Positions 870 to 62,866 are shown, numbered from the stretch's first letter. The stretch: DNA of 64,000 bases from Abditibacterium sp. (GCA_965199495.1 CBDASK010000003.1:4160001-4224000), one strand, 5' to 3'. The notes: generated from the letters alone by a model not told the origin. Translations and numbers: made by a program.

Positions 870-1574
870 ATGGCCACTCAAACCCTCAATACCGGCGCCC
901 GTTTGACGCCGTTTTTGCTGCCGCAACCCGCGCGCATCGGAATGTTAGTTTTGCCGGGCGGCGGCTACCAAAATCTGGCGACCGACCACGAAGGCCAGCA
1001 GATTTGCCAATGGCTCAATGCGCGCGGCACCGATGCGTGGATGCTCGAATATCACGTCGCTTTCACAACTCCTGCGCCGTTATTGAACAAACCGCTTGAC
1101 GATGTCGGCGCGGCGGTCAAGGCGGTGCGCGCCGACAAGCGCAACCAAAAGTTAGGCATCTGGGGATTTTCGGCGGGTGGTCATCTGGCGGCGATGGCAG
1201 CCACGGCGCCCGCATTGAAATTCGATTTAGCGATTTTGGCTTATCCGGTCATCGAAGTGAGCGGCTCGCTGGCTCATAAGGGTTCGGCGGATAATCTCAT
1301 TGGCCAAAATCCAACGCCGCTGCAAATCGAAGCGTATTCGCCGCTACGCCGCGTGTCGCTCGATACGCCGCCGACGTTTCTGTTTTCGACCTCGGAAGAT
1401 ACGACGGTGCCGCCGCAAAACTCGCTGTTGATGGCGCAGGCGTTGGCCGATCATCGCGTGCCGTTCGAGATTCACGTCTATGAAAAGGGCGGGCACGGCG
1501 TGGGATTGGCTTTGAATAATCCTTATTTGAAAAGTTGGAGCGAGCGTTTGGAAGCGTGGCTTTCGCTGCGTTAA
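870..1574 (+). CDS. alpha/beta hydrolase (acetyl esterase/lipase family)
   Basis: PGGGY oxyanion motif, GFSAGG nucleophile elbow, D..V and GGHG catalytic motifs. Confidence 0.9.
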   Translation: MATQTLNTGARLTPFLLPQPARIGMLVLPGGGYQNLATDHEGQQICQWLNARGTDAWMLEYHVAFTTPAPLLNKPLDDVGAAVKAVRADKRNQKLGIWGFSAGGHLAAMAATAPALKFDLAILAYPVIEVSGSLAHKGSADNLIGQNPTPLQIEAYSPLRRVSLDTPPTFLFSTSEDTTVPPQNSLLMAQALADHRVPFEIHVYEKGGHGVGLALNNPYLKSWSERLEAWLSLR

Positions 1575-1650
1575 GTCAATCGCGCGAAATCCGCCGAATT
1601 TGGCTGTTATACTGCCCGGTTGTTTCCCCGCAAACAACTAAGGTAATATC

Positions 1651-3018
1651 GTGTCCCATCTTCAAAATGGCAACGGCCATCATCCCGAACACACTTCGGA
1701 GTTCGACATCAAGTCGATTCCCGAAATCAAAATTCCGCCCCGCGTTTTGATGGGCGCCGGGCCTTCGGCCTCGTATCCCGAAGCCCTGCGCGCGATGGGC
1801 GCCAACACTCTGGGCCATCTCGACCCCGAATTTTTGGGCATCATGAACAACGTCGGCGCCATGCTGCGTCGCGTTTTCAAAACGAACAATCCCATCACCG
1901 GCGCCGTGCCCGCGACTGGAACTGGCGGCATGGAAGCGGCTTTGTGTAACCTCATCGAGCCGGGCGACGAAGTTTTGTGTTTGGTTTTTGGCTATTTTTC
2001 CAACCGCATGAAGCAGATGTCGGAGCGCATGGGCGCCGTCGTCACCGTTATCGAGCGTCCGTGGGGCACCGTTTTCACGCCCGAAGAAGTCGAAACCGCG
2101 CTCAAAGGCATGAAAAAGCCGAAATTGGTTTCGGTCGTTCACGCCGAAACTTCGACCGGCATTTTGCAGCCGATTGACGAAATCACCAAACTCGCGCATA
2201 AATACGGCGCTTTGGTTGTCGTTGACGCCGTGACGAGTTTGGCCGGTTGTCCTTTGCTCGTTGACGAATGGGATTTGGACGCCGTCTTTTCAGGCACGCA
2301 AAAATGTATCGGTGCGCCTCCCGGTCTGTCGCCGATCACGTTCAGCCCGCGCGCGATGGACGCGATTCGCGAGCGCAAAGTGCCCGTGCAAAGTTGGTAT
2401 TTCGATATGTCGCTGGTCGAAACGTATTGGGGCGATACCGGCGGCGGGCGCGCTTATCATTACACCGCGCCCTCCAATGCGCTGTTCGGTTTGCACGAAG
2501 CGTTGCGTCTGACGCTTTTGGAAGGTTTGGAGAATCGCTGGGCGCGCCACGAACTGCACTCCAAAGCGATTATGGCCGGTTTGCTTGAACTCGGTTTGGA
2601 ACCGTTCGCGCAGGAAGGCCATCGTCTGTGGCAAATCAACGCCGTCAAAGTGCCCGACGGTTTGGACGACCAATTGATGCGCACTCGGTTGTTGCGCGAA
2701 TACAACATCGAAATCGGCGCCGGTCTTGGCCCGGTCAAAGGCCAGATTTGGCGTATCGGCGTAATGGGTTATTCGGCCAATCGCTCCAACATTTTGTTGG
2801 TGCTTCAAGCGATGGAAGACATTCTGCGCGACATGAATTATCCGGTGAAATCGGGCGCCGCCAACGACGCCGCGCAAAACGTTTATCACGAACACGACCG
2901 CCAGAACAAAATGAAACCGCGCCCAAAAATCGAATTGCAAACCGCGCCGGACGACGAAAACGTCGGCGAATCTATTCCGTCGGAAAGCGTCGCGCGCGGC
3001 GTGGCTCATCGTGGGTAG
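1651..3018 (+). CDS. alanine-glyoxylate/serine-pyruvate aminotransferase (class V PLP)
   Basis: GAGPS, HAETSTG, VDAVTS, SGTQKC (PLP Lys) and WRIGVMG motifs; GTG start. Confidence 0.92.
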   Translation: MSHLQNGNGHHPEHTSEFDIKSIPEIKIPPRVLMGAGPSASYPEALRAMGANTLGHLDPEFLGIMNNVGAMLRRVFKTNNPITGAVPATGTGGMEAALCNLIEPGDEVLCLVFGYFSNRMKQMSERMGAVVTVIERPWGTVFTPEEVETALKGMKKPKLVSVVHAETSTGILQPIDEITKLAHKYGALVVVDAVTSLAGCPLLVDEWDLDAVFSGTQKCIGAPPGLSPITFSPRAMDAIRERKVPVQSWYFDMSLVETYWGDTGGGRAYHYTAPSNALFGLHEALRLTLLEGLENRWARHELHSKAIMAGLLELGLEPFAQEGHRLWQINAVKVPDGLDDQLMRTRLLREYNIEIGAGLGPVKGQIWRIGVMGYSANRSNILLVLQAMEDILRDMNYPVKSGAANDAAQNVYHEHDRQNKMKPRPKIELQTAPDDENVGESIPSESVARGVAHRG

Positions 3019-3034
3019 GGCAGGTTCAATTGGT

Positions 3035-3070
3035 AAAACGCGGGAGAATTTCGCTTCTCCCGCGTTTTTT
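3035..3070 (+). terminator. intrinsic terminator
   Basis: AAAACGCGGGAGAA / TTCTCCCGCGTTTTTT hairpin just after the stop codon. Confidence 0.8.
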
Positions 3071-3076
3071 GGTTTG

Positions 3077-3284
3077 TTTGGTAATTTCTTTCTGCGCGAG
3101 CGACTGTTGCATCTTGATTGTCTAATGCGGAAATGTAGGGGCGGGGTTCTCCCGCCCAAAATGTCAATGCGACATCGAACTTAATCTGGGGGCAATACGT
3201 TCCGGGCGGGAGAACCCCGCCCCTACATTTCCGCATTAGACAATCAAGATGCAACAGTCGCTCGCGCAGAAAGAAATTACCAAA
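3077..3284. repeat. 81-bp perfect inverted repeat with GTAG-type REP core
   Basis: Arms 3077-3157 and 3204-3284, 46-bp spacer; inner end of each arm is GTAG-GGGCGGG-GTTCT-CCCGCCC. Confidence 0.9.
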
Positions 3285-3327
3285 ACCCCGCCACGGAAAA
3301 CGGCCCTATACTCCTTCTCCCAATTTT

Positions 3328-4602
3328 ATGACCCAAGAACGCAACTGGCGCGATGAAGCCATTGATGAATCGCTTGGCGGTTTCAATTACGAGAATCATA
3401 TCGAGGCGATGATGGCGGCGATTCGCCGCTCGCAGCCATCTTGGCCGACCAACATCGTGCAGGCCAATCGTCCGCGTTCGCTCGATTTCTTGCGCGAAAA
3501 CTGCGCCGATGTGCGCTCACTTTTGAGCGCACCGCACGCTTTTACCGGCGACGACGATGACGAGGGCGACGAAGTCTGGGCCGATTGGGTTGAGGTCGAG
3601 TGGCAAGGCAGCCACGTCGAGTTGGTCTATTTGGGCGGCGAGTATAATTCGCGCATTATTTGTTTGTCGCCCGATGGAGATGTCGAAAAATTGGCGCAGT
3701 TCGCGCGCGCGATGCAAGATTTCGCGGCGCGTCCGGCCAATCGCAGCCTAATTTTTAACGCCGGTTGGGAAGACGCGCCGCACTTGGACTCCGAGTTGGG
3801 TCGCGTGACGTGGGACGATATTACTTTGCCCGACAACATTTTGCGCGATTTGCGCGAAGCCGTCGAAGGCTTTTTCGCGCAACGCGAAATTATCGAATCG
3901 TTTGGTTTTACGTGGAAACGAGGCGTTTTGTTGGTCGGCCCGCCGGGAACTGGCAAAACGATGGTTTGTAAAGCCGCCGCCGCGTCGTTGCCCGATTTGC
4001 CGTTTTTGTATGTGCGCAGCTTGGACGGCTACAATCCCATCGGCCAAGTTTTCGCGCGCGCGCGCAAGTTGGCGCCGTGCATCGTGGCGTTCGAGGATAT
4101 TGACGGTTTAATTTCTGCCGAAAATCGCACGGTTTTCCTCAACGAAATGGACGGTTTCGCTTCCAACGAAGGTTTGCTAATTATCGCCAGTTCCAATCAT
4201 CCCGGCAAAATTGACGAGGCGCTTCTCAAGCGTCCGTCGCGTTTTGATCGCGTGTTTCATCTGGGCTTGCCCGAAAAAGAGGAGCGCCGCGCGTTTTGTG
4301 AGCATCTGCTGCACCGTTCGAGTTTGACCGAGCGCCTGACGCCCGATTTCGATAGCGAATCATTGGCGCAGCAAGTCGCCGATAAAACCGATGGTTTTAC
4401 TCCGGCTTATCTCAAAGAAGCATTTCTGGCGGCAGCGCTAAGCCGCGCGCACGCGGGCGAAACGCAGTTGGATCAGGGTTATTTCGACGCGGTGTTGGAG
4501 CAGGTCGAAGAATTGAAATCGCATCTGAAACGCTTGAAAGACCCCGATGCGCTCGCCGAAATGCGTTCGGGCAACGAGTCAATTGGGTTTCGCGGACGCT
4601 AA
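3328..4602 (+). CDS. AAA+ ATPase
   Basis: Walker A GPPGTGKT, Walker B AFEDID, SRH region SSNHP..IDEALLKRPSRFDR. Confidence 0.92.
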   Translation: MTQERNWRDEAIDESLGGFNYENHIEAMMAAIRRSQPSWPTNIVQANRPRSLDFLRENCADVRSLLSAPHAFTGDDDDEGDEVWADWVEVEWQGSHVELVYLGGEYNSRIICLSPDGDVEKLAQFARAMQDFAARPANRSLIFNAGWEDAPHLDSELGRVTWDDITLPDNILRDLREAVEGFFAQREIIESFGFTWKRGVLLVGPPGTGKTMVCKAAAASLPDLPFLYVRSLDGYNPIGQVFARARKLAPCIVAFEDIDGLISAENRTVFLNEMDGFASNEGLLIIASSNHPGKIDEALLKRPSRFDRVFHLGLPEKEERRAFCEHLLHRSSLTERLTPDFDSESLAQQVADKTDGFTPAYLKEAFLAAALSRAHAGETQLDQGYFDAVLEQVEELKSHLKRLKDPDALAEMRSGNESIGFRGR

Positions 4603-5043
4603 ATTATTCGCTGTGTTCTGACCGGGCAACAGGTCGAGGCAAGACCAACCGGCGCTTAATAGCAGGATTAATTTGACGAGTTCCAAACCGATATAAATCC
4701 AGTGAAATGGAGCGGGCGGTGGCTGCTGCCCGGCCAGAATTTGCGTGACGCGCGCATCCAAAGTTGGAAGCAGCCACGCGCTCTGTAGAGCGACGATAGC
4801 GGCGACTGCCAACAACTTGAACATCAGGGCGCGCGATGGGCGCAGACGAAGTAAAATCGTGACAGCAAGGATGGCCGCCGCGATTTCGACTTTGTTGAGG
4901 GCGCCAAAAACGTGGCGACCCACATCCAGCCCGATGGCCAGGATGACGCTGGGCGCGGTGAACTTGACGGGCGTTTCTAAAAACGAAATGCCCGCCACCA
5001 AACCCGCCCAGATCAAACACAAAGCTGCCAGCGCTTTCATCAC
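4579..5043 (-). CDS. DUF4149-like membrane protein
   Basis: Four hydrophobic segments; ISFLETPVKFTAP and H..YIGLELVK motifs. Confidence 0.7.
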   Translation of the reverse strand: MMKALAALCLIWAGLVAGISFLETPVKFTAPSVILAIGLDVGRHVFGALNKVEIAAAILAVTILLRLRPSRALMFKLLAVAAIVALQSAWLLPTLDARVTQILAGQQPPPAPFHWIYIGLELVKLILLLSAGWSCLDLLPGQNTANNLASAKPN

Positions 5044-5435
5044 GCGGTTTTCTCCAAGGTCACCGTTAGCAGCATAGTGCCCGCCGTGCGCGCGGTCACG
5101 TTATGGCGCACGCCCGGCCACAAAACTAACATCGCATCGGTCGTCAACTGATGCGTTTCGTCGGGCGTCGCGATCTCGAAATCGCCTTCGATAATTTGAA
5201 TCGTCACCAAACCCCGCGCCGAATGTTCGGGCATCGATCCGCCAGATTCAAAGGCAAAAGCGACCATCGTCACGGCGCCGTGTTGCAGCAGCGTGATCTG
5301 GCGATGCCCACTTTGTCCGTCGTGAACTTCGGCGCGCAAATCTTGCGCGATTCGCTTCAAATCAAAGGCATGCTGCGGCCCGGCGAAACGCTGAACTGGT
5401 GGCACGCGCAGACGGGATTCATCGGAATTATTCAT
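5040..5435 (-). CDS. cupin domain protein
   Basis: MPEHSA..TIQIIEG and PGVRHNVTA cupin motifs; 4-nt overlap with the downstream gene. Confidence 0.85.
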   Translation of the reverse strand: MNNSDESRLRVPPVQRFAGPQHAFDLKRIAQDLRAEVHDGQSGHRQITLLQHGAVTMVAFAFESGGSMPEHSARGLVTIQIIEGDFEIATPDETHQLTTDAMLVLWPGVRHNVTARTAGTMLLTVTLEKTA

Positions 5436-5498
5436 GAGAGTTTTTATTTCCTTGGCGCTACGGAGTTTACGCGCAAACCATAAACCCCGCCGCGTCCG

Positions 5499-7292
5499 TT
5501 AAGAAACCAAATCGCTTTTTCGCTCGGTCTCGCTGACTGCTTCGCCATTGGGTTCGCTGACATCGCGCCCGCTTTCCGCCGCGTAAATGCGCTCGCGCAC
5601 TTCCTCGACAATCGCCTGCTCGCGCTCGTAACGGCGCTCCGATTCGACGGCGTCATAGGCATACGGGCCGCAGGTGACAATCGGAATTTTCTCGAAATTA
5701 AGTGTCGGCGGCGGCGACTGCATCTGCCATTCCAAACCGGTTGCGCCCCACGGATTGGCGGGCGCGCGTGGCCCATATTTTAGCGACCACAACAAATAGA
5801 AAAACGGCAGGGCAAAACCGACCGCCAAAATTGTCGCGCCCGCGCTCGACATGACGTTAAGGAACTGCATTTCGGGCGGATAAGCGTGATAGCGGCGGTG
5901 CATGCCCCACATGCCCAGCAGAAACTGCGGGAAAAACGTCAGGTTGAAGCCGATAAACAAGATCATCGCCGCGACTTTGCCCCACGTTTCGCTATACATA
6001 CGGCCCGTCATTTTGGGCCACCAGAAGTGCAAACCCGCCAAATAAGCCGACAATGTGCCGCCAACCATTACATAATGAAAATGCGCGATAATGAAATAGG
6101 TGTCGTGCAGATAAATGTCGGTCGCGAGCGCCGCGCAGTGAAGTCCCGTCAGGCCGCCAATGGCGAACAGGCCCATGAAGGCAATCGTATACCACATCGG
6201 GACGGTGAGTTGAATCGAGCCTTTATACATCGTCGCCGTCCAGTTGAAGGTTTTGACCGCCGAGGGAATGGAAACCATAAACGAAAGCAGCGAAAAAACC
6301 ATGCTGGCATAAGGCGATTGGCCCGCCACAAACATATGGTGCGCCCACACCAAAAAGCTGAGGATTGCGATGGCCAACGACGAGAACGCCACGAATTTGT
6401 AACCGTAAATTGGCTTGCGCGAGAAACAGGAGAGAACTTCCGAGATGCACGCGAACGCTGGCAAAACCATGATGTAAACGGCGGGGTGCGAGTAGAACCA
6501 GAACATGTGCTGGAACAATACCGGGTCGCCGCCCAGTTTCGGATCGAAAATCCCCACGCCCAATAATTTCTCGATGATGACACAAATCAGCGTGATCGCC
6601 ACGACCGGCGTGCCCAAAACCTGAATCAAACTCGCCGCGTAAATTGACCACACGAACAACGGCAGCCGAAACCATGTCAGGCCGGGCGCGCGCATTTTGT
6701 GGATGGTGACGATGAAGTTGAGGCCCGTTAGAATCGAAGAGACGCCCGCCAGAAAGGCGCCGATGATGACCCACACCACCATGTTGTTGGAATAGGTCGA
6801 GGAAAGTGGCGCATAAAATGTCCAGCCGGTATCCACGCCGCCCGATAGCATCGCGACAACAGCCACCGATGCGCCCGCAATATAAAAATAAAACGAGAGC
6901 ATATTGAGCTTGGGAAATGCGACATCGCGCGCGCCCAGCATCAGGGGAATCAGGAAGTTACCCAACACCGCAGGAATGGCCGGAATCAAAAAGAAAAAGA
7001 CCATGATGATTCCGTGCGCGGTGAAGGCGCGGTTATAGGTATCGGCGCCCAACAGACCCTGCGGCTCGATGAGGTTGTAGCGCACCATGCCCGCCGCCAA
7101 ACTGCCGACGATGAAGAAAATGGAAACCATCACCAGATACATCATGGCGATGCGCTTGTGATCGAGAGTGTAAATCCACGATTTCCACGAGAAATCGTTG
7201 TTGAGATAGGTCTCCTGCGGCGCCTCCTCGTTCAGCGTGAGCGGCGTTTCGGCGGGCGCGAGCGGAGTGGGATTTTTGAAGGCTTCGGTCAT
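5499..7292 (-). CDS. ctaD: cytochrome c oxidase subunit I (A2 type)
   Basis: [24 protein letters not shown] and MHRRY motifs; D-channel Asp (GARDVAFP) and K-channel Lys present. Confidence 0.96.
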
Positions 7293-7356
7293 AAAAGCGA
7301 GTCCTCTGTCGGAATCGCTTTGAAGTGTGGGCGCGCCGTGGCTGCTAATTCATCCG

Positions 7357-8061
7357 CTAAACGGCGGATTGAGAACGTTCGTTGTTGACTTCGATTAAAC
7401 CCTGGCGCGCCGCCCACACTGCGGCCTGTACGCGATCCGACACGCCCAATTTGCCGATGATGTGTTCGACATGTGTTTTGATGGTGGATTCGGCGACGAA
7501 TAGAATCGCGGCGATTTCGCGGTTGGATAGGCCGGTGGCTAAGAGTTGCAAAACCTGCGTTTCGCGTTGCGAGAGCGGCGAAATCAGTTGCGATGAATCA
7601 ATCGTGCGCGCGTCGAGGCTGTGGAGCGAGCGGCCCAGTTCCTCGCGCGAGAGCAGCATCTCGCCGCCAGCCACGGCGCGCAGGGCGCATAAAAATTCGT
7701 CGAGTTGAACGCCCTTGAGCAGGTAACCCGCCGCGCCACCCGCGACCGCGCGCGCCAGATAAGTCGGATTGTCGTAAGTCGTCAGCATCACGACGGCGGT
7801 GCGCGGCAATTCGCTTTTAATTTTCGCCAGCGCTTCCAAGCCATCGCCGCCCGCCATGCGAATATCGAGCAAAACGATGTCGGGCCGTTTGGCGCGCGCC
7901 AATTCGATGGCTTCGCGGCCCGACGCGGCTTCGCCCACGATTTGGAATTCGGTGTCTTCGAGTAACGAACGCACGCCGCCGCGCCAAATCGCGTGATCGT
8001 CGGCCAAAACGACGGTGACTGTTGGACTTTGGGACATAGATTGGCGCGGCAGAATTCTCAT
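7357..8061 (-). CDS. NarL/DosR-family response regulator
   Basis: Receiver domain (ADDH, LLDIRM, GYLLK) plus LuxR HTH (LSQRE..GLSNREIA..TIKTH). Confidence 0.93.
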   Translation of the reverse strand: MRILPRQSMSQSPTVTVVLADDHAIWRGGVRSLLEDTEFQIVGEAASGREAIELARAKRPDIVLLDIRMAGGDGLEALAKIKSELPRTAVVMLTTYDNPTYLARAVAGGAAGYLLKGVQLDEFLCALRAVAGGEMLLSREELGRSLHSLDARTIDSSQLISPLSQRETQVLQLLATGLSNREIAAILFVAESTIKTHVEHIIGKLGVSDRVQAAVWAARQGLIEVNNERSQSAV

Positions 8062-9245
8062 TAAGTTGACGATGAATTGACGCGAAAACGTGCGCTAATC
8101 CCCGTGCCTTCGCCGGGCGCCGATTTTACCTGCAACTCGCCATCCAACAGGCGCGCGCGCTCGGCCATGCCCGCCAATCCGACGCGGCCATTTTCGCCCG
8201 TCAATTTTTCGGGCGAAAACCCGATGCCCCAGTCGCGCACCCGCAAAGTCAATTCGTCGTTTTCGCGTTGCAAAGCAACTTCGGTGCGCTGGGTTTGCGC
8301 GTATTTGCGCGCGTTGGTCAGGGCTTCCTGCGCGATACGATAGACCGTGGTTTCCAGATTTTTATCGAAGCGCTCGTCGCCGACATTACACAGCCACGTC
8401 GCCTCCCATCCCGCGCTCGTCGCTTCTTCTTCGAGCAATTGACTCAGCGCCTGCACCAAACCTAAATCGTCGAGTGCGAGCGGGCGCAACCCATTAATGA
8501 GGCGCCGCGATTCGGCGACGGCGTCGCGCAAGTAGCGCGTGCCGGTTTCCCATTCGCGCGCGGCGCGCTCGCCTTGGCCCTGCGATTGAGCGCGCCCAAA
8601 GGCTTCCAAGTGCGCGTGGCTGGCCATCACCAGTTGCGTCAGGCCGTCGTGTAAATCGTAGGCGACGGCGCGGCGTTCTTCTTCCTGTGCGGTGATTAAT
8701 CCCGACACCAGACCGCGCTGGCGTTCGAGCATCTGCAAATTATAAATCGCAATCGCCGCGTGCGCGCCCAACGCCTGCACCGCCGTTTCGTCGGCGGGCG
8801 TGAACGCGCCGCCGCCCGTTTTGTTGGTCAAATACAAACTGCCAATCACGGTTTCACCGCGTCGAATTGGCACGCCTAAAAATGAACTCATCGGCGGATG
8901 GTTGGGCGGAAAACCAACCGACGCCGGATGATCCGCCAACACATCAATGCGCAACGGCTCGGCGCGTTCGAGCAGTAAACCCAGCACGCCCGCGCCGTGC
9001 GGCAACTCGCCGATGGCGGCTTGTTGTGCGGGCGAAAGTCCGACGGCGATGAAGTGCGATAACACGGTTTCCTCGCCGCGCCGCACGCCCAGCGCCGCGT
9101 ATTGCGCGCCCGCCAAAACGCGCGCGGCCTCGGCGATGCGTCGTAGCGCTTCGAGGCCCGATTGCGATGTCAAAATATCCAATGCCACGCGATTGGCGGT
9201 TTCCAGAACGAGCGCGCGCTGATTGTTGAGAGTTGCTTCAGGCAT
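8061..9245 (-). CDS. GAF-domain HisKA_3 sensor kinase, DosS/DevS-like
   Basis: GAF motif HPASVGFPPNHPPM..FLGVPI..GSLYLTNK; H-box EERRAVAYDLHD; QEALTNARKY, DWGIGF, GLAGM. Confidence 0.9.
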   Translation of the reverse strand: MPEATLNNQRALVLETANRVALDILTSQSGLEALRRIAEAARVLAGAQYAALGVRRGEETVLSHFIAVGLSPAQQAAIGELPHGAGVLGLLLERAEPLRIDVLADHPASVGFPPNHPPMSSFLGVPIRRGETVIGSLYLTNKTGGGAFTPADETAVQALGAHAAIAIYNLQMLERQRGLVSGLITAQEEERRAVAYDLHDGLTQLVMASHAHLEAFGRAQSQGQGERAAREWETGTRYLRDAVAESRRLINGLRPLALDDLGLVQALSQLLEEEATSAGWEATWLCNVGDERFDKNLETTVYRIAQEALTNARKYAQTQRTEVALQRENDELTLRVRDWGIGFSPEKLTGENGRVGLAGMAERARLLDGELQVKSAPGEGTGISARFRVNSSST

Positions 9246-9285
9246 AAGTAGTGCGGAAGATATTTTTCGGCATCAGCCAACGTTT

Positions 9286-9398
9286 CAATGCGATATAAAA
9301 TCGCAGCCAAGAAAGTGCTCGGCCTTCGCCGACAACGGCCCATGACACTTGTCGGCGAAGGCCGACCACTTTCTTGGCTGCGATTTTATATCGCATTG
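9286..9398. repeat. 50-bp inverted repeat with GTGG-type REP core
   Basis: Arms 9286-9335 and 9349-9398 (1 mismatch); core GTGG-TCGGC-CTTC-GCCGA. Confidence 0.85.
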
Positions 9399-9546
9399 GG
9401 GCACACGCAAAATACCGCTTTTCTTTCTTCCGACTACTTAATTGGCTGGACTTGAGTTATTGCGAGCCAGTTTGCCAGCTACAAATACAAATCGGCTGTT
9501 TCGCGGATGAAAAATGCGCCCTGTTCGGGGATAATGAAAGTTAATC

Positions 9547-10581
9547 ATGCTTCAATCCCCAAAGGCTCCGCACGAAGTTTTGCACGAAATTTCGCAACGC
9601 GATTTTCCGTTTAGCGGGACGCCCGAAGAGCAAATCCGATTTCTGCTGCAGTTCGCGATTCTGGCGCCGTCGAGCCACAACACGCAACCGTGGTTGTGGG
9701 AAATCGAAGGCGATGAAGTGACGCTGCGCGCCGACCGTTCGCGTTTGATGCCCGCGCTTGATCCGCTTGGACGCGAACTGATCCTGAGTTGCGGCGCGGC
9801 GCTGGGCCATTTTCGATTGGCGGCGCGCTATTTTGGTTGCGCGGCGATTACTCAAATGTGGCCCGACGAAAACCAGCCCAATTTATTGTGTCGCGTGCGA
9901 ATTGTGCCGGGCCGTCCGCCGACCGACGACGACCAAGAATTGTTCTCGTTTGTCGCCAAACGCCACACGCATCGCGGCGAATTTGAAACGCGTGAATTAC
10001 CCGCTTCGTTGTTGCGCACTTTACAAAGCGACGCCGAATCCGAAGAAGCCACGCTGCACTTTGCGCGCGACGAAGAACAGCGCCAATCGTTGGCCCGGCT
10101 CATCGAGCGCGGCGATGTTGAGCAAAACCGTGATGGCGCCGTGCGCCGCGACGTGGCTGATTGGATGTCGCCGCCCGGCGCGCGCCGCGATGGAATCCCG
10201 ACGAGTGCGCTGGGCATTCCCGATTGGCGCGCGCAGACCGCGCCGCTCGCGCAGCGTTATTTCGATCTGGGCGAGGCGACCGCGCAAAAAGATAAATCTC
10301 TGGCGATGGGCGCGCCGGTTCTCACTGTTTTAAGCACATCGGGCGATGACGAGCGGGCGTGGCTGCGCGCCGGTCAAGCGCTGGGCCGCGTGTTGTTGCG
10401 CGCACGTTCGGAAAATGTGTGGGCCAGCTTTTTCAGCCAGCCGGTTCAGGTGGACGGCGCGTGGAGCGAATTGCGCTCCCTGCTGGGATTGCACGATTAT
10501 CCGCAACTGGTGTTTCGTCTGGGCTACGCGTCGCCCGTAGCAGCCACGCCGCGTCGCCCGGTCGAAGAAGTTATCGTCTGA
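9547..10581 (+). CDS. Acg-family FMN-binding nitroreductase-like protein
   Basis: APSSHNTQPW, DP.GRE..LSCGAAL, KRHTHR, WLRAGQAL and QLVFRLGY..TPRR motifs. Confidence 0.9.
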   Translation: MLQSPKAPHEVLHEISQRDFPFSGTPEEQIRFLLQFAILAPSSHNTQPWLWEIEGDEVTLRADRSRLMPALDPLGRELILSCGAALGHFRLAARYFGCAAITQMWPDENQPNLLCRVRIVPGRPPTDDDQELFSFVAKRHTHRGEFETRELPASLLRTLQSDAESEEATLHFARDEEQRQSLARLIERGDVEQNRDGAVRRDVADWMSPPGARRDGIPTSALGIPDWRAQTAPLAQRYFDLGEATAQKDKSLAMGAPVLTVLSTSGDDERAWLRAGQALGRVLLRARSENVWASFFSQPVQVDGAWSELRSLLGLHDYPQLVFRLGYASPVAATPRRPVEEVIV

Positions 10582-10588
10582 TAGCCGA

Positions 10589-52883: not shown

Positions 52884-52940
52884 ACTGCGCGGCGCCGTCG
52901 CGTGATTGGTGCAAACTGTGGCGGACATCCGGCGCTTTTT

Positions 52941-54085: not shown

Positions 54086-54092
54086 GCCTCAT

Positions 54093-54953
54093 ATGCCCCA
54101 CGATTTCTCCGATGAAATCCAAGTCGCCTTTGATCGCTACGAAGCCGAGCGCGATGCCCGCGTCGAGTTGCCACCGCTCCGCTTCGTAGGCGGCCCCTAC
54201 TTTCCGGCGCGCGTCAAAAAAGGCGACATCCTCCAATGCGCGCGTCTGGGCGAGATGCGCGTCGTTGGCTGGAGTGACGGGCCGTTGCCGTGGCCCAAAG
54301 GCGTGCGAGGACGAGGTGGGCCACCCTCGCTAATTCTTTTCGCCGATCTGGAGAAGGCAGTGCGCGTCGAGAGCGCGGTCGCCGTGGCCTTGGCGTGGGG
54401 CGTGTCGCGCAACTCCGTCCGCGACTGGCGCGCGGCTCTGGGGGTTGGGCCTATTACGCAAGGCACGGCAGCGCGCCATAAACAGAACAAGCCCGCGATT
54501 TGCGCTGGCATAGATTACGAAGCGATTTCTCGCATATGCCACACGCCCGAAAAGACTGAAAAAGCGCGTTTGACGCGTCTCGCTAATGGTCACAAAAAGC
54601 GGCAGTGGAGCGCCGAAGAAGTCGCTTGGATGGGACAATTGAGCGACGCCGAAATCGCCGAACGCCTTGGTTGCAACAAGCTCACCGTCGCCCGCGAGCG
54701 CAATCGGCGCGGCATTGCCGGGCGTTTCACCGGATGTAGCGCCGATTTACCTCCGGTTGATCCATCCAAGATTCGGGCGCGACGTTTGGCCCTTGGCCTG
54801 ACTCAGCAAGAGGTCGGCGCTCGAATGGGGAAGGCGAAAGACCGGGTTATTCAACTGGAAGCCGCGATTTCAAAGCGAGCCAAACCCGAAACTCTCGAAC
54901 ACCTCGCTCAAGCTCTCGAATGTGAAAAGCGCGATTTGCAACCGGATTGGTAG
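54093..54953 (+). CDS. multi-HTH DNA-binding protein with C-terminal XRE domain
   Basis: AVALAWGVSRNSVRDWR, SDAEIAERLG, IRARRLALGLTQQEVGARMG..LAQALEC. Confidence 0.75.
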   Translation: MPHDFSDEIQVAFDRYEAERDARVELPPLRFVGGPYFPARVKKGDILQCARLGEMRVVGWSDGPLPWPKGVRGRGGPPSLILFADLEKAVRVESAVAVALAWGVSRNSVRDWRAALGVGPITQGTAARHKQNKPAICAGIDYEAISRICHTPEKTEKARLTRLANGHKKRQWSAEEVAWMGQLSDAEIAERLGCNKLTVARERNRRGIAGRFTGCSADLPPVDPSKIRARRLALGLTQQEVGARMGKAKDRVIQLEAAISKRAKPETLEHLAQALECEKRDLQPDW

Positions 54954-54971
54954 GTCATCGCCTCAAATGGA

Positions 54972-57900
54972 TCAACTGACGACCGGTTCGGCGCGCATCG
55001 GAAACGGCAACACGCGCGGCACCGTGGTTTGCGAAGTCGCGATGGCGCCCTGCGCTTCCGACAAAGCGCTGCGTTGATAGACGAACAAAACGCCGCTTTG
55101 CCGCGTGCCAACGAGCAAACGTTCATCGCGCTGCGCCACCGGCTCCGCGTCGCCTTCCCCCGCCAAAGCTGGCAGATCGAGCGCGAACAATTCGAGCGCA
55201 CTCACGCCTTCCACGGTTTTATCAGCCAGATCGAGAGGTAACGTCAATTCGACTTCATCGAACCACGCGCCGTTTTGTCGCTGCCCACTGAGCCAATCGC
55301 CCGCGCCGCCCGCCACGCCGCGCGGTGGCCATGCGCCCGCCGCTTCGCCAATCGCGCCCCCGCTCCACGTCGCGACGCCGCCAATCGCGCCGTCGCGCGT
55401 CAGTGTGCGCGTATATTCAGTCGCCCCGCTTTTCCAAACTTCGCCGTTTTCCAAGCCCACGAAGTCGCTCGACGCCGCCGTAACCGCCGCGCCAAAAGTG
55501 TGCGTCAGCGACGGCGCCGCCACGCCGTCCGCCGAAGTCCATAACGCGCCCGCCGTGGCGACCGCCAAACCGGCGCCGACCGGCGCGCAAAACGTCACCG
55601 CGTCGGCTAACTCCCACACCAAACGCGGCGCGCCAAAGCTCAAATCGTAGCAACGTGTGGACGGCGTTTGTGTCGCGTCCACGTAAAGCGCCAGTGCGCG
55701 CGTGCCCACGACATCGACAAAACGGGGCGCCCGCGTTTCGCCGCGCACGGTGTAGGCCAGCGCCACTTGCCCGGCATCAGTGTCGAACGCGAACAGTTCA
55801 CCGGGCCGCACGACAAACAATTTATCGCCCAACAGCGCGGCGTCGGAGGCGTCGCCAGCGACGTTATCCGCGCCAACGAAAATCGGCGTCAACTGGCCAT
55901 CGTAAATGAACGCCTTCGCCGGATCGGTGCCCCACACCAGATGTTTCCCCGGCTCGATTTGGCGCAGTTTTATAACCGTCGCGGTGCCCGTCGAGAAAGC
56001 CGACAAAACCCACTGCTTCGTCCATTTTTCGCGCATTCGTATCTCTGCCAGATGCGGCAAGTTCAACGTGACCGGCGCGCCATACTGGGCGCGCGCGATG
56101 CGGTTGCCCTGCGCGCTTTGCGTCTCGCCGCGTTGCAGCACAATCGGCTGATGCTTGAGCCAATCTTCGTGCTGATACGGCCCATCCAAAGCGGTGCCAC
56201 TGCGCACGCCATGCTGCACCCAGAAATTGCGCGCCGTATTTTCAGCCGTCGGCCACACCTCGATGCCGACGTTGGCGCGCCCGATGACCTGACCGGCGGG
56301 CGCATCGAAACGGTAAACGTCGCGATAGAAGACGTTGCCGTGTAGCGAGTTTTCGACGACAACCGCGCGCGACATTTCGGCAAAGCAGCAATCGCTTCCA
56401 CGCGCGCGCACGCGCAAACTTTTGGCACCAGAACTATAATCAAGCGGCGAAAAATAGAAGGCGTAAACGCCGTTGCGCGGCGTGCCCGACGTGCGCGATA
56501 ACTGCACGACCGGCAACAGATAATCGCCCAGATACAACTCGATTTGCGCATCTGCGGTATCGAGCGACGCGCACGCATCGTCGGGCAAGAGCGGCACGCC
56601 GCATTCGTTCACGGTTTCGCCCGTATCGGCGAGCGAAAAGCGCAGCCACGTCGGGCGCGAAATAACTGCGTTTTCGTCGGGCGCAATCCACGCGATTTGC
56701 AGCGCTTCGGACGCCAGCGTAACCGTCGCGCTCCACGGCCCCCATGCGCCCGCGCCCACATCGTTGACGCCGCGCGCGCGATATTTGCGCGCGCTTTGTC
56801 CCGCGTCTGCATCGTCAAACGTCGCGGTCGCGATGACGAGATTGGGCGCATCGTCGCGCGCGAGTTCGAGCGAAGTCGCGCGCGGCGGCAAAGCGGGCGC
56901 GGTGACGACGATTTTATCCTGTTCGCAGTTTTTGGTCGCCGTGGGCGCGACGGGCGCATCCGGCGCCATCGGCGCGCCAGTCGGAACCGGAATACACGGC
57001 CCGCCTTCGACCTCACGATAAAAACCCGGCTCACAACAGTCGCAATCTTCGCCCGAACCGCTCCCCGAACCGCTCCCCGAACCGCTCCCCGAACCGCCCC
57101 CCGAACCGCTCCCCGAACCGCTCCCCGAACCGGATTCGATGCTTTCGGAAATCTGAGACTGGTCACTCAAATGACAATCATTCGCGTCTAAAAGCGCGAG
57201 GTTAAATGTCAAAAGTCGCGGCTCATCAAACTCGCTATACGCGGAACCAGAAAACGAATAGCGTTTGTAAACGTGGATGCCGACTTGCCCCGTGGAATCG
57301 TTGCCAAATTCGTCTTTGACGGTTTCCACAACCGCGCTCGTGGAAACGTCCCCTTGTTCACAGGAAAACGTTTCAACGGCCAATGGGCCACGCGCGATTA
57401 TCCTGCGACTAAATGTAAAGTGATTGCCGTAACTAAAATTACCCGAACTCGAAGGCGAATCTACGCTGCCTATCTCATTAAAATTGTAATTGCTAACATC
57501 TATTCGGACAATGCACGCTTCAATATATCGTTTAAAGCCGTCAACGTCCGGGCCGACACCTCCGCGCGTGGTGAAATAAATCTCTCCATTGAGCGCGCCT
57601 TCAAGGTCATCAAACTCGTAAATCTGACCGGTGAAATCGGCGGGGGGAGTGTTGGTTTTATACCAATCAATAGATTTGCCGTCGAATTCGCCTTCGACAA
57701 GCTCAACCGCCGTGGCTGTGTAACGCCGCGTCTCTAAATCAAACCTCAGTTTGATGCGCGGCGATGATTCGTAATTATCGGAGCCGGAGCCACTACCAGA
57801 ACCCGAACCGGAACCCGAACCGGAACCCGAACCCGAACCAGAGCCGGAACCCGAACCAGAGCCGGAACCGCTACCAGAGCCGGAACCGCTACCAGAGCCG

Positions 57901-58127
57901 GAACCGCTACCAGAGCCGGAACCGCTACCAGAGCCGGAACCGCTACCAGAGCCGGAACCGCTACCAGAGCCGGTGCCGCTACCAGAGCCGGTGCCGGTGC
58001 CGGTGCCAGAAGGCGTGCCGATTGGAACGCACTCGCCCGTTCCATCCTGTCGAAAATATCCAGGCGGACATTCGCCCGTTCCAAAACCTGAACTGCTACC
58101 AGAACCTGAACCGCTATTATTTTGCAT
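54972..58127 (-). CDS. large (Gly-Ser)n-repeat protein with Cys-rich motifs, FN3-like and beta-propeller-like regions; putative virion protein
   Basis: GS tracts, CPPGY..C and CEPGF..C motifs, Y.ARGVN.VG.G.W..WS FN3-like motif. Confidence 0.7.
57052..57132 (-). repeat. 12-bp tandem repeat encoding (GS)n
   Basis: CCCGAACCGCTC, about 6.7 copies, one variant. Confidence 0.9.
57781..58010 (-). repeat. 18-bp/6-bp tandem repeats encoding the long (GS)n tract
   Basis: ACCAGAGCCGGAACCGCT x6 exact (57855-57962) plus flanking variants. Confidence 0.92.
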
Positions 58128-58956
58128 TATTTAGAACCTCTTTTAAAACTGTCTCTGGCGAAATCGAACTGAGCGCACTGCACCCTCTATCGCACGCATC
58201 CGAATAGCTTTTCTCGCGTTGCCAGCCGCAAAACCGACACTTCGTATCAGGCGTAACCGCGCGAACTTCGCTGCAACTCCACAAAATTTGCGGCGCTAAC
58301 TGCGCGTGAATCGCCACCGTCGGCGCGCCCAAAAGCCCCGCGTAATGTGCGATGCCGGAATCGTTGCCCACAACGCAGCGCGCGGCTAAAATCGCATCGC
58401 CAACCCACGCCGCATCGTGCCCGTAAACCCAACTCATCCAACTTCCCAGATAGCCAAATTCGACCTGCGCGCGCGCCGCGTCCGCCGCCGTGACCAGCGC
58501 CACCACGTCGAAACCGCCCGCGTGCAGCAGTTCCGCCAGCCGCGCGAAATGCGGCGACGGCCATTCGCGCGCGCGCCACGCCGAAAACGGCGATAACAAA
58601 ACCACGTTCGTTTTGCCGCGAACACCGTGCGTCGCCGCACGGTGTTCGCGATTGATTTTCGCTGGCGCGGCGGGCGCAAACGGTTCGATGCCCGCGCCGC
58701 GCGCGATGGAATCGCAGTAGTAACGTTTGCGGTCAGAGCCGCTTCGGATATGAGCTTCATAATCGCTGTTACAGTTAATGCCAGTTTCGGCATGAGCCAA
58801 AAGCGTGAGGTTCGGATGCGAAACGCGCGCGAACCAATCGTGATGGCGCGCGTGGTAAATCACCTCATGTCCGGCGTTAGCGGCGCCGCACGCGGCATAG
58901 AGCGCGCACACGCTGTCGCCGATTCCGCCCGCCGAATTGTAGAGATTAAGCTGCAT
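58117..58956 (-). CDS. glycosyltransferase family 9 (heptosyltransferase-like)
   Basis: [42 protein letters not shown]-terminal CxxC..C..C..ISPETV. Confidence 0.85.
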
Positions 58957-59020
58957 GAGACACCCCGATTTGTTCGGCGATTACGTCCATATAAGATCTG
59001 AGTTATACCGATCGCGTTTT

Positions 59021-59269
59021 TTAAATTTCTGCGCCCGTCTCGTCGTCCAATTGCGCGATTTTCTCGGCGCGTATCTGCGCGAGATAGGGCGCGCACAGCG
59101 TTTCGCATAATTTTCGCGCGCCAAAATCTGCGCGCGAAATCGGATTTGGCGACGTTGTGCCGTCAGCGTTGAGAATGAGTTCTTGATACCCTGCGCTGTC
59201 AGCATAAGCGTCCACCGCATCTTTCTGTTTTTGGTTCGATGTTTTGATGTTGATTTGAAGTTTTGACAT
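59021..59269 (-). CDS. small protein after the tail fibre gene (possible fibre chaperone)
   Basis: 82 aa from ATG 59269, directly downstream of the fibre-like gene. Confidence 0.55.
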   Translation of the reverse strand: MSKLQINIKTSNQKQKDAVDAYADSAGYQELILNADGTTSPNPISRADFGARKLCETLCAPYLAQIRAEKIAQLDDETGAEI

Positions 59270-59279
59270 GATTTTGATG

Positions 59280-60470
59280 TTAGTTCTTGGATTCGACGCG
59301 CCAAAAAGTGCCCTCGCTGACAAGGACGACGCACGCGAATTGCGCTGTTAATACCACGTCGCCGCCCGCGAGATTTGTGACCGTTAGCGTGTTTGATGCG
59401 ACTGTTTTCCATATCGAATAACGCCGACCGGGACACGTTGACGCGGCGGGCAATGACTGAGAAATGCTCGCGTTTGTCGTATCGAATCCGATGCTGTGAT
59501 GTTGTTCTGATAACGTCACAGCGTCGGTTGAGACAATGTGCGAACCTAATGCGACACTGCCGTTGCCGTGCAAATGCGAGTGAGGCGCCGTCACTCCCGC
59601 AAAACCTACTTTATTTAGAGCAATTGTGAGCGGATAATAAACGACCCCATCACCATAATTCTCCGTTAAAAATCTGTGATATGGTTCATAACGCCCGTTA
59701 TAAACCATGCCATTATTCCGTTGAATTGACATGTTCACACCGCCCCAAAAAATTAAATTTGGCCCCATATTCAAAGACGGCATTGACTCAATTCCCGTTA
59801 CCCCGCCAAAATTTGCGGTGTAGTCCTTTTGTGCAGGGTCTCCGAAATAGATTCTGCGCGAACCTGTGTTGCTACTGATAAAAATAGCGTCAACGGCAGG
59901 ATTGGCGGGGTCGGGTCGTAACTCAATTTTCGCTCCAGCGCTACCGGGCAGGTTCGCGATTTTGTTGAGGTCTAAACGATTCGCTGAAAATGGTGCGTTA
60001 AGATTCGTAAATCTCCCGTCATCGCCCGCCGCCGCGCCGATATTGCCCCGCGCCGTCGCCTGTTCCGCCGTCGTCAATCCGCCCAACAGACGCGCCGCCT
60101 TGCCCTGAATCGCTGTCCAAAGATTCGCGAGAACATTGCGCAAAAACGACGACGCGCCCTCGTTGGTAACATCGAGCGTGGGGAGACCGCTGTCGTCAAT
60201 CGCATCAATCGCGGCTTGCAGTGATTCAAAATCATCCGCGCTCGCAGCCTCAATCGCATTACGTCCCGCTTCTGCGTCTGACGACGTGAGCAACGCGCGC
60301 CCGGTGCCGGTTGCGTCGCTGATTTTGTCTGAGGTGACATCGCCGACGCCGTCGCTGACATCGCCGCCCTGCACAATGCTATGCGTGGCCGGATCGTAAG
60401 CCAGGGAGACCGCGCCAAGCGCCGCTTGAAAGGGCGCGGTGTCAACAGTAATAAATCGTGGAAGTCGCAT
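59280..60470 (-). CDS. tail fibre / receptor-binding-like protein
   Basis: ISDAT.TGRALLT..DA..GR.AI, LT.AEQ..AR.NIGA, VG..GVTAP.S.LH, LPAASTCPGRRY motifs typical of fibres. Confidence 0.65.
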   Translation of the reverse strand: MRLPRFITVDTAPFQAALGAVSLAYDPATHSIVQGGDVSDGVGDVTSDKISDATGTGRALLTSSDAEAGRNAIEAASADDFESLQAAIDAIDDSGLPTLDVTNEGASSFLRNVLANLWTAIQGKAARLLGGLTTAEQATARGNIGAAAGDDGRFTNLNAPFSANRLDLNKIANLPGSAGAKIELRPDPANPAVDAIFISSNTGSRRIYFGDPAQKDYTANFGGVTGIESMPSLNMGPNLIFWGGVNMSIQRNNGMVYNGRYEPYHRFLTENYGDGVVYYPLTIALNKVGFAGVTAPHSHLHGNGSVALGSHIVSTDAVTLSEQHHSIGFDTTNASISQSLPAASTCPGRRYSIWKTVASNTLTVTNLAGGDVVLTAQFACVVLVSEGTFWRVESKN

Positions 60471-60478
60471 GATGAAAA

Positions 60479-62866
60479 TTAAGCCCGGCGCATGAGTTCA
60501 GGCAGTTCATCCAGCCGCACTGGCTGGTTTGTCGGCGTCACCAACACCACGGCTTCGATGCGCGCCGTGGCTGGCGTTGCGGGCACGATCAGGCGCCCGT
60601 AGTGCGCTAAGTGCGTGTAAGTCGTCAAATCGCCGCGCGACGCATCGCTATTTATCCGATACCACAGACACGGATAGGCATCTCGCTCATCGCTCAGCCG
60701 CTTTTCGTCGCTTGTATCGTTGATTTGAAAAGCCGACATCGGAGCTGCTGCGTCGGGTGTCATCCGTTCGAGACAGCGAAAACCAGAACCATCGGGCAAA
60801 CTGTCGATCACGCATTGCGCATTACCGCACGCCGGTTCGATGAACGGCCCTTCGACGCTGCCATCGCTGAGTATGTCGAAACAGAGTTTGCCCCAAAAAA
60901 GATTTGGATCGTAGGGCAAAGTGCCGTTGGGTCGCGCGTTGAAGAACATCGTCGTCGGATTGACGAAGAGCGACAGCCAGAAGCCAGTCGTCGGCATCGT
61001 CGCGCTCGCGCGCCACACGCCGCCGCCGTCGCGTCCCGCTTGCTCTATCCAAACGAAATACGCCGCCAACTTCGCCACGTCGCCGCCCGCCGCCTCGAAC
61101 TCCGCGCGGCTCAGCGTAAACGATTCCAGTTCCTCATTCCAAAACGAGCAGATATGAGTTCCGCCGCCGCCCGCGTTGAGAATCTCGACCACGCGATTGG
61201 CCGGGCCGATGCCATCGTCGCCATCGCGCGCCGTCACGAACAAACGCGCGTCTTCGCCCGCATTGCAAACCGTCGCGCGCCGAATGAAATAGGGAAACGC
61301 CGCATCGCGCAGCGTGCGACCATCGGCCACGGCGCAGATCGGCGCATCGTTTACATGGGGTCGCGCGCCTTCGCTGGCACCGGGCGCTTCGTCCACTGCG
61401 TCGGGCGCATCTTCGGGCTTTTGCTCCGACGGCGCGTGCGCGGGTTCGTCCGGCGGCGCTTGGCCGTCGCCGGGCGCATAGCCCCACAAATAGAGCCGAC
61501 TGCCGACCGCGCGCAGCCGTTGCCAGAAGTGCGTCGCGGTCGGGCGCTTCATGCCCGCAAATCCCTGCCAGCGCCCGCTTTCCATCCAGTCGAGATAAAG
61601 CGTCTCCGGCTCGTCGGAGCGCACCGCCCAGTAGCGCCCCAGATACAACTCCGCGCAGTTGGTGCCGTGCCACAGTGTTGACGGCCCGCTCAAATCGCGC
61701 CCGCCCACGCGCCGCACCATGCGATTGTAGTGCGCCGTGCCATCGCTGACGCCGCCGAAGTTCTCCGTCCAGAAAATCATTTCATTGGCTGATGGAAAGC
61801 GTAGACAGTTGCCGCCGGGATGCCCGTGGCTGCGGTCGGGGTAGCCGGGTAGCGCCTCGCGCACATCGGGCGCGTCGGGGTCGTAGCGAAACAAAGCGCA
61901 CTCGGTCAGGAAATAGAGCGTGCCATCGGGCGCCTGCACCAAATCGCTACAAAAATGATTGGTCTTGGCGCACTCGCACACGCCATCGGTGAAGCTGGTT
62001 TGCAATCCCAACAACTTCGCCGTGCCGTCGGCGCGCAGCAGCCACAACGCGGATTGCGGGCCATTTTCCGACGCCCGCAACCCGCCGATCAAAAGCGCAC
62101 CGGCGGGCGCGATGAACTGCCCGTCGTTGGTGCGAAGCGACTGCGTTAGCTCGCAGGACGCTGACACCGCGCGTGCCAAGGGGTCGAAGACAACGCGATA
62201 CTGCGCCGCGTTGGCGGGCGTGACAATCGCTTCGGTTTCGTCGTCGTTTTTGGCGTAAAGCGCCGCGCCCGGAGAAGGACAAACGCCCGCCGCGACGCTC
62301 CACTCGCCATCCCCTACGACAACGCGAAGCGCGCTCCACTCGCCGTCTTTGATACGCGCCGGGCCAAAGGGCGTCTCGAACACGGCGCCCGCGAAGGTGC
62401 GCGCCCACAGCAGATAGGCGCCATCGGGCACAATTCCCAACGCGCCATCGGCGCCCGACTGCGCGACCATCGCGCCGGTGGCACACGAGTAAAGTCGGGC
62501 GTCGGCCACGCCTTCGGGCACGCCCATCCCGTAATAATTGGCGCGGTAAAGCGTGATGCCCCTCGCCACGAGCGGCGCGCCCGACGCCACGCGGTCGAGC
62601 GGTTCGGGGAAACCGTTTGGGTTGAAGGTTTCGCGCGCCGCATCCAGGACGCGCAGATCGCCGACGACTTCGCGCGCGGGCATTGGGATAACGCCCGCCC
62701 ATGCGCCTTTGCGCTCGCTCCAGTAATGCTCGTCGTATTGCCACAACCCGTTTTGCACGCCCGCGAAAACTTGACCCGCGTGAGCGAGTGATTCCATCGT
62801 GCGAATTGAGGGTAGCGCCGTAAAATCGAAATGGGCGTGCGTTGGTATCAGTAAAGGGGCGGGCAT
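60479..62866 (-). CDS. hypothetical beta-rich (propeller-like) phage protein
   Basis: 795-aa ORF in the same operon. Confidence 0.6.
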   Translation of the reverse strand: MPAPLLIPTHAHFDFTALPSIRTMESLAHAGQVFAGVQNGLWQYDEHYWSERKGAWAGVIPMPAREVVGDLRVLDAARETFNPNGFPEPLDRVASGAPLVARGITLYRANYYGMGVPEGVADARLYSCATGAMVAQSGADGALGIVPDGAYLLWARTFAGAVFETPFGPARIKDGEWSALRVVVGDGEWSVAAGVCPSPGAALYAKNDDETEAIVTPANAAQYRVVFDPLARAVSASCELTQSLRTNDGQFIAPAGALLIGGLRASENGPQSALWLLRADGTAKLLGLQTSFTDGVCECAKTNHFCSDLVQAPDGTLYFLTECALFRYDPDAPDVREALPGYPDRSHGHPGGNCLRFPSANEMIFWTENFGGVSDGTAHYNRMVRRVGGRDLSGPSTLWHGTNCAELYLGRYWAVRSDEPETLYLDWMESGRWQGFAGMKRPTATHFWQRLRAVGSRLYLWGYAPGDGQAPPDEPAHAPSEQKPEDAPDAVDEAPGASEGARPHVNDAPICAVADGRTLRDAAFPYFIRRATVCNAGEDARLFVTARDGDDGIGPANRVVEILNAGGGGTHICSFWNEELESFTLSRAEFEAAGGDVAKLAAYFVWIEQAGRDGGGVWRASATMPTTGFWLSLFVNPTTMFFNARPNGTLPYDPNLFWGKLCFDILSDGSVEGPFIEPACGNAQCVIDSLPDGSGFRCLERMTPDAAAPMSAFQINDTSDEKRLSDERDAYPCLWYRINSDASRGDLTTYTHLAHYGRLIVPATPATARIEAVVLVTPTNQPVRLDELPELMRRA

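Follow-up and report, generated by a model that had tools for sequence, protein, structure and literature searches.

A hyper-abundant dispersed word in an Abditibacterium-group genome keeps its distance from copies of itself on the same DNA strand

The word at the locus

The stretch analysed here, referred to as the window, comprises 64,000 nucleotides of Abditibacterium sp. (GCA_965199495.1, CBDASK010000003.1:4160001-4224000), and our subject is a short word, GCAGCCACG, that recurs across it on both strands. The window lies on C3, a chromosomal contig (4.72 Mb, 55.7% GC) of an Abditibacterium-group soil bacterium (genome G000) whose ComEC and MutL proteins have their best named relatives in Abditibacterium utsteinense (48% and 74%) and in Abditibacteriaceae metagenome-assembled genomes, which places it in that family. 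The original prediction, made from the window alone, reported 24 copies of the 9-mer, 13 forward and 11 reverse, where chance would give about one. All 24 are present where it placed them, 21 within genes predicted by our own gene caller, and dinucleotide shuffles of the window yield a mean of 0.80 copies and a maximum of 3, with none of 100 shuffles reaching 24. The prediction also proposed a 12-mer in which the 9-mer continues as BCG. The continuation holds, in 18 of the 24 copies; position-by-position mismatch counts, by contrast, place the conserved core at AGCCACG-B-CG and demote the leading GC to part of a weaker 5′ extension, (W)GC. This 10-base core occurs 38 times in the window, and the word-related features are as follows.

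1199..56653, forward strand: 20 copies of the core AGCCACG-B-CG, starting at 1199, 3610, 7669, 8392, 10542, 11149, 18216, 20633, 20668, 22305, 24299, 24687, 27804, 31729, 36836, 38325, 39000, 44642, 45512 and 56644.
2997..60572, reverse strand: 18 copies of the core, with leftmost base at 2997, 7334, 10149, 12766, 14179, 19163, 22953, 24668, 27568, 29899, 37001, 40511, 42821, 49543, 52483, 53402, 57708 and 60563.
4770..61833, both strands: six 9-mers GCAGCCACG with a variant 3′ end, at 4770 (+), 10358 (−), 35917 (−), 45583 (−), 47253 (+) and 61825 (−).
24668..24696: inverted pair of two cores forming a terminator-like hairpin between convergent genes 23982-24647 (+) and 24723-25577 (−); folding −39.7 kcal/mol, z −8.1, none of 200 shuffles equally stable.
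60572..64000: beginning of a phage-like island poor in the word (C3 4,221-4,269 kb), at 125 words per Mb against 565 in the core sample.

The pair at 24668-24696 is the single inverted pair among the core copies of the window, and 20633/20668 is one of few close same-strand pairs. The 9-mers with a variant 3′ end are weaker, yet they likewise avoid strong same-strand sites.

Genome-wide abundance

Across C3 the core occurs 2,799 times (593 per Mb), and AGCCACG alone reaches 960 per Mb, a density near the roughly one per kb of the highly iterated palindrome HIP1. The 8-mer CAGCCACG, with 3,083 copies, ranks first under both order-3 and order-5 Markov models. Our gene caller finds 4,035 genes on C3 (84% coding); 2,566 of the 2,799 cores (92%) lie in genes, at 644 per Mb; another 220 lie between genes (298 per Mb) and the last 13 on edges. 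Every one of the six reading frames is used, and relative to the gene 1,138 copies are sense and 1,428 antisense. The original prediction named loss of enrichment under dicodon-preserving shuffling as its own refutation. The enrichment survives: against the 2,566 genic copies, synonymous shuffling gives 116-139, dicodon-conditioned resampling 268-290 and a codon Markov chain 326-357 (three replicates each), an excess of 7-22 times, and these three codon-aware nulls rule out a codon or peptide artefact. The word in fact shapes the proteins: the most enriched tripeptides include VAA, AVA, AAT, TAT and ATA.

The strand balance seen in the window extends to the whole contig (1,407 and 1,392 copies), is even in 50-kb bins and gives a cumulative range of 35, against a random-walk mean of 83. 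Density is even along the chromosome, and no replichore polarity or gradient of the word was found along C3, where the origin was not located and GC skew is weak. One expectation borrowed from Neisseria, inverted pairs acting as terminators at gene ends, finds little support in G000, with 16 intergenic pairs among the 3,083 8-mers. By contrast, the proposed frame-independent self-signature, in a lineage with none described, is supported. Our literature searches turned up nothing published on dispersed words in Abditibacteriaceae or on the exclusion of same-strand copies; most subscription journals lay outside these searches, and oligomer surveys such as PMC3497702 might tabulate such words.

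A strand-specific spacing rule

At separations of 60-750 bp, 191 same-strand pairs of words are observed where 573 are expected, against 589 opposite-strand pairs for the same expectation (same/opposite ratio 0.32); at 60-500 bp the counts are 89 and 376, with 365 expected for each. The same-strand count divided by its expectation (O/E) is 0.14 below 112 bp and climbs smoothly to 1 near 1.6-2 kb, whereas the opposite-strand ratio stays at about 1. Same-strand pairs fall below opposite-strand pairs in 15 of 15 slices of 300 kb. The exclusion is symmetric in the 5′ and 3′ directions, has a Gaussian scale of ~880 bp and extends to weaker variants of the word but not to dead core variants; all eight control words lack it where counts allow. 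It persists across gene borders and between oppositely oriented genes, which rules out a gene-level explanation and indicates that the rule follows the DNA strand. We found no polar action, no helical phasing at 9-13 bp and no strand-skewed composition around oriented sites (within-gene GC difference 0.004 ± 0.004 in 336 genes). The related genome G011 repeats the rule, with 6 same-strand and 20 opposite-strand pairs for 21 expected of each.

Known systems behave differently in the same test. The DNA uptake sequence (DUS) of Neisseriaceae, in 731 kb, gives 415 same-strand and 425 opposite-strand pairs for 485 expected (ratio 0.98), and N. gonorrhoeae alone gives 70 of 103 for both. Pasteurellaceae uptake signal sequences (USS), whose even spacing is already on record in part of PMC1939737, give 32 and 36 of 43 in 359 kb (ratio 0.89, an underpowered sample). 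E. coli Chi is clustered, with 13 pairs within 300 bp against 4.5 expected among the first 100 of 447 forward sites. Among the gonococcal records, NZ_CP119140.1 (2.17 Mb) is filed as a plasmid and looks like a chromosome.

Relatives, dialects and replacement words

Three of the 27 family genomes contain 2,676-3,503 copies of CAGCCACG and the remaining 24 contain 131-529; of 41 relatives reaching out to phylum level, 38 have 1-94 copies of an 11-mer form. An unrooted tree built from the RpoB of 12 genomes, from which G005 was left out as its gene is partial, unites the three word-bearing genomes, G000, G011 and G004, as one clade at the end of a long stem (support 100/100). Judged by ComEC and MutL identity, A. 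utsteinense lies outside this clade, of which some 20 further members were seen beyond the 27 family genomes. Dialects exist among relatives, in keeping with the original prediction: G000 and G011 share one form, and G004 has GAYAS-CAGCCACG-TYC. This longer dialect forms many intergenic doublets with variable loops, 43 of 58 lying outside reading frames, and G017 has a AGTACGGTCGA doublet, outside frames in 41 of 48 cases. In both genomes terminator-like doublets lie near stop codons.

Other relatives carry unrelated words. Sampling 22-160 kb per relative revealed AGTACT-core palindromes in G020, G022 and G014, and AGTAC-N0-2-TCGA reaches 1,503-6,652 copies in five of the six genomes of genus g6, with 209 in G018 and at most 97 elsewhere. 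Taken together, the AGTACT-core palindromes (G020, G022, G024, G047, G014, G018) and the 22-base doublet palindrome of G017 are HIP1-like and recur roughly once per kb in the two sister genera concerned, even though G000 itself strongly avoids GTAC (O/E 0.11). The words of G017 and G020 also keep apart below 300-500 bp. From the spacing and form of the relatives' words it follows that every form gives both strands one copy per ~1-2 kb. In two sister genera the part played here by the word falls to unrelated palindromes, much as it falls to HIP1 in cyanobacteria. At the same sampling depth no word was seen in G002, G003, G005-G010, G012, G013, G016 or G023; sampling for unknown words was too shallow in G001, G015, G019 and G021, and G018, G024 and G047 were counted by pattern only.

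Foreign DNA, conservation and neighbouring features

Depletion in foreign DNA, raised as a check by the original prediction, is borne out: plasmid C1 has no words, phage-like C2 has two, and eight islands, picked as gaps in the word distribution, have 0-265 per Mb against 565 in the core. The rRNA genes have none in 6.2 kb, where ~4 would be expected. Conservation between species resembles that of a selected site. Of 131 sites compared with G011 by orthology, 86 are intact and none is gapped, at 27% four-fold divergence; in G004, 18 of 146 are intact and 6 gapped. Identity at word sites is 23 of 33, compared with 4 of 15 for matched same-peptide controls. These alignments indicate that the word arises by point substitution and is conserved between species.

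C1, C2 and the eight islands avoid the host's depleted 6-base palindromes (O/E 0.00-0.14; core 0.01) about as strongly as the core does. More generally, at least 15 six-base words, most of them palindromes, are avoided to an extreme degree on C3 (O/E 0.01-0.05), as is CTAG (0.04), and the family shares this avoidance in varying sets. A metagenome scan for inverted pairs returned 119 loci, all GC-rich chance matches and none from the clade by density or similarity, and three viral scans (2, 25 and 119 loci) returned no word-rich phage of this lineage.

The end of the window is phage-like. Positions 54972-63748 hold late genes without a PHROG match, one starting with a long Gly-Ser repeat, beside a heptosyltransferase-like neighbour. 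In the phage-like island, 26 bases at 60123-60148 are matched by one spacer of a G000 CRISPR array of 131 repeats (C3:2766477-2775000), another spacer of which matches C3:593119-593155 exactly. Elsewhere in the window, 51984-52883 encodes a member of the integron-integrase family, above the TIGR02249 cut-off, and 14143-15789 encodes a carbamoyl-phosphate synthase large subunit covering the first half of the family model only (545 of 1,052 positions), a split carB. An Rfam search found three tRNAs and nothing else.

A tag that may be read on single strands

The word is uptake-like in its evolution but appears to be read strand by strand, because its exclusion acts on the same strand only, unlike that of Neisseria DUS and unlike the clustering of Chi. 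Our tentative preference, held at slightly less than an even chance, is that the word is a self-tag that licenses the donor single strand after import through ComEC, and that it spreads by molecular drive in homologous recombination. Chromosomal DNA of relatives would enter as a single strand via the type IV pilus, ComEA and ComEC; according to part of PMC7811141, one strand alone passes ComEC. A sequence-specific reader, possibly aided by methylation, would then protect or license any donor strand with a copy of the word no farther than ~1 kb away in either direction. Further copies would be driven only where the same strand has none nearby, so that each strand would fill independently to one copy per 2-3 kb. 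The palindromes of G020, G022 and G014 and the inverted doublets of G017 and G004 could represent the same solution, serving both strands at once. Transformation as the process, reading on single-stranded DNA and the existence of a reader protein are steps that we infer.

Of the genes that the original prediction proposed to look for, G000 has ComEC, ComEA and the type IV pilus components PilB, PilT, PilC and PilD; DprA, ComF, RecA, MutS and MutL are present as well. In toy lattice models of three processes, duplex uptake excludes both orientations, as in N. gonorrhoeae; single-strand licensing excludes same-strand neighbours only, with the opposite strand near 1; and a one-strand repair ratchet combines same-strand exclusion with a 2.3-fold attraction of opposite sites at 100-300 bp.

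Several observations weigh against single-strand licensing. The toy models ran on parameters of our own choosing. ComEC is present in all 27 family genomes, with or without the word, so the competence genes do not discriminate, and no reader protein of the word was identified in our searches. In G004 the strand effect is not significant (39 same-strand and 43 opposite-strand pairs for 69 expected; single sites 14 and 21 for 21 expected, p 0.16). Conversely, Lonepinella alone has 10 same-strand and 20 opposite-strand pairs (one-sided p 0.049); the Pasteurellaceae control is weak, so the strand rule may hold for some uptake sequences as well. Avoidance of palindromes is family-wide, and mobile elements may therefore derive from word-free relatives. 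Finally, nothing in these genomes indicates that the bacteria transform.

More broadly, Abditibacteriaceae could possess an undescribed form of self-recognition that acts after import on single-stranded DNA, replaces AddAB-Chi and freely re-codes its word, with HIP1 as the palindromic case of the same mechanism. We regard this extended proposal as possible but doubtful. If true, the asymmetric word would show by what means HIP1-type tags are read and what halts their accumulation at about one per kb.

Alternative explanations

A repair ratchet acting on one strand, which adapts Elhai's HIP1 model to an asymmetric site, is unlikely in our view. In this model the word, marked on one strand, would direct mismatch repair to keep that strand over ~1 kb, and site-creating errors would make themselves permanent until each strand is covered. 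Methyl-directed repair in E. coli, which extends up to 2,000 bp on either side according to extracts of PMC3848065 and PMC4390886, operates over a matching distance and likewise in both directions, and the toy version yields same-strand exclusion. Moreover, MutS and MutL are present, and the first Asp of the MutL endonuclease motif, DQHA(X)2E(X)4E, is replaced by N, C or S in 119 of 120 homologues, which may leave the family dependent on a different signal for nicking; the Asp-to-Asn change is also the one used to disable Borrelia MutL (PMC9159922, in part). As a further peculiarity of the family MutL (G000 C3:84585-86483), the last Glu of the motif is D or A, and most genomes have no MutH. 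The MutL change is, however, common to word-free genomes, and MutH, a rejected candidate, occurs in 4 of 27 genomes, none with a word. The ratchet would lower divergence close to sites. One binning does show four-fold divergence from G011 increasing weakly, from 0.25 beside sites to 0.32 at 2-4 kb, a trend that G004 lacks; binned by cover on both strands, divergence is flat (0.26-0.28 for G011, 0.26-0.30 for G004). Base use around oriented sites is not strand-skewed, the resident plasmid and phage did not gain the word, and in place of the predicted 2.3-fold attraction of opposite sites at 100-300 bp we observe 0.84-1.04. Single-strand drive is favoured over the ratchet because this attraction is not seen and strand-aware divergence is flat. 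Candidates for a marking enzyme fared no better: G000 has ~15 candidate methyltransferases, whose specificity is not readable from sequence, and the two profiled across 27 genomes, a type ISP and an Eco57I-like enzyme, are patchy (15 of 27 and 6 of 27) and broken or divergent in G004. Neither these two methyltransferases nor MutH tracked the word.

Somewhat less probable is a Chi-like signal that stops a non-AddAB enzyme or loads RecA during double-strand-break repair, with both orientations needed as breaks from drying or radiation fall randomly. A Chi site is recognised on a single strand and in a single orientation (10.1101/2021.07.08.451572, in part). Of the 13 genus genomes, the 10 that lack the word all have AddA and the three that carry it do not, and AddB-type frames occur in 9 of these 10 word-free genomes; no AddB-size PD-(D/E)XK frame was found in the word-bearing genomes. 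G000, searched for RecBCD, AddAB and AdnAB, has no AddA or AddB match, and its PF12705 matches are only a 299-residue island protein and a 1,421-residue PD-(D/E)XK nuclease fused to a Dna2/Upf1-like helicase (C3:4111365-4115630, minus strand). This fusion, which has 381 unnamed homologues, in Armatimonadota and Thermomicrobiales, occurs in 5 of 27 genomes; it is common to the three word genomes, although split by a stop in G011, and is lacking in the other 10 of the genus. As a reader it fits the clade but fails outside it, as G016 has the helicase without a word in 102 kb and G020 has a word without the helicase. The AddA pattern corresponds to one or two evolutionary events, and AddA is absent from all 14 other family genomes, word-free genera included. 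Furthermore, a polar enzyme should produce a 5′/3′ asymmetry that is not seen, E. coli Chi clusters, and the palindromic equivalents in relatives are unlike known Chi sites.

The original prediction favoured a DNA uptake sequence of the classical type, which a minor pilin at the cell surface would bind in duplex form; we assign this only a slim chance. Part of that interpretation stands: the word is genome-wide, strand-balanced, frame-independent and depleted in foreign DNA, and has dialects; terminator-like doublets occur near stop codons in G004 and G017, and a pattern search gave 13 pilin-like proteins. The surface uptake sequence itself is not supported, given the lower density between genes, the few inverted pairs and above all the strand-specific spacing, since duplex recognition should ignore orientation, as Neisseriaceae DUS do and the word does not. 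PF16732, the ComP-type DUS receptor family, matched in none of five genomes, although the positive control also matched nowhere and ComN was not searched. Lastly, a binding site in cis for a nucleoid, replication-restart or transcription-coupled factor under ordinary selection is highly improbable: the even density, a GC skew so weak that forks may run either way and the proposal of HIP1 as a chromosome organiser (PMC5861425, in part) are compatible with it, but phasing, polarity and any tie to gene orientation are missing, words turn over rapidly between genera, and sister clades are word-free.

Comparison with known systems

The word was also compared with GTAG-type REP/REPIN (repetitive extragenic palindromic) repeats. 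The intergenic doublets of G004 read GTAG-GAC...GTGTC on one strand and resemble the REP ends of G000. The G000 word differs in being 92% coding, single, ungapped in alignments and without conserved flanks, and the REP families of G000 are separate and lack it. At least three REP-like families, of 157, 118 and 114 copies, form inverted doublets on C3, and a pattern search gives three short frames resembling RAYT. In contrast to the polar KOPS and AIMS sequences, the word shows no polarity or gradient towards the terminus. With Chi it shares asymmetry and possibly, judging from its spacing alone, an effect that depends on the strand. G000, however, has no nuclease of RecB, AddAB or AdnAB size, and the word lacks leading-strand bias, is not accounted for by codon use and keeps apart where Chi clusters. 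It therefore lies outside Chi, because enzyme and polarity fail.

DUS and USS, as portions of PMC3630211 and PMC7811141 describe them, are asymmetric 9-12-mers at hundreds per Mb, without replichore bias, depleted in acquired DNA and with dialects along the tree. The word shares all of these features, as well as terminator doublets in relatives. It falls outside the class because two tested features fail, namely intergenic inverted terminator pairs, few in G000, and orientation-blind spacing, here replaced by same-strand-only exclusion; it is also rarer between genes, and no ComP match was found, with a control that matched nowhere.

The function of HIP1 has, to our knowledge, been unsettled for three decades, and among hyper-abundant genomic words, those tied to gene exchange by experiment are known to us from Neisseriaceae, Pasteurellaceae and cyanobacteria. 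HIP1 (GCGATCGC) has about one site per kb, is mostly genic, gained by substitution and conserved, has alternate words and is linked to transformation (PMC13756078, PMC4390886, PMC5861425 and 10.1101/2024.09.10.611283, each in part). The word resembles it in density, genic placement, gain by substitution, conservation and alternate words in lineages, and the AGTACT-core palindromes of G014, G020, G022, G024 and G047 look like direct analogues. It differs in phylum, in palindromy, being asymmetric in G000, G011 and G004 (palindromic in G014, G020 and G022), and in that no cognate methyltransferase was found among the two of ~15 candidates profiled. Asymmetry is what makes the strand rule visible, because a palindrome cannot show one. 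Abditibacteriaceae extend the list of such systems by three or more unrelated words, one taking the place of another from genus to genus. The measurable rule, acting on the same strand, in both directions and over ~1 kb, separates surface uptake from strand-level reading by sequence alone, and the same pair statistic is applicable to other dispersed words. The word is a genuine genomic tag of the HIP1/DUS kind, specific to its clade and in a phylum new to such tags, and its strand rule is shown neither by the uptake sequences tested nor by Chi.

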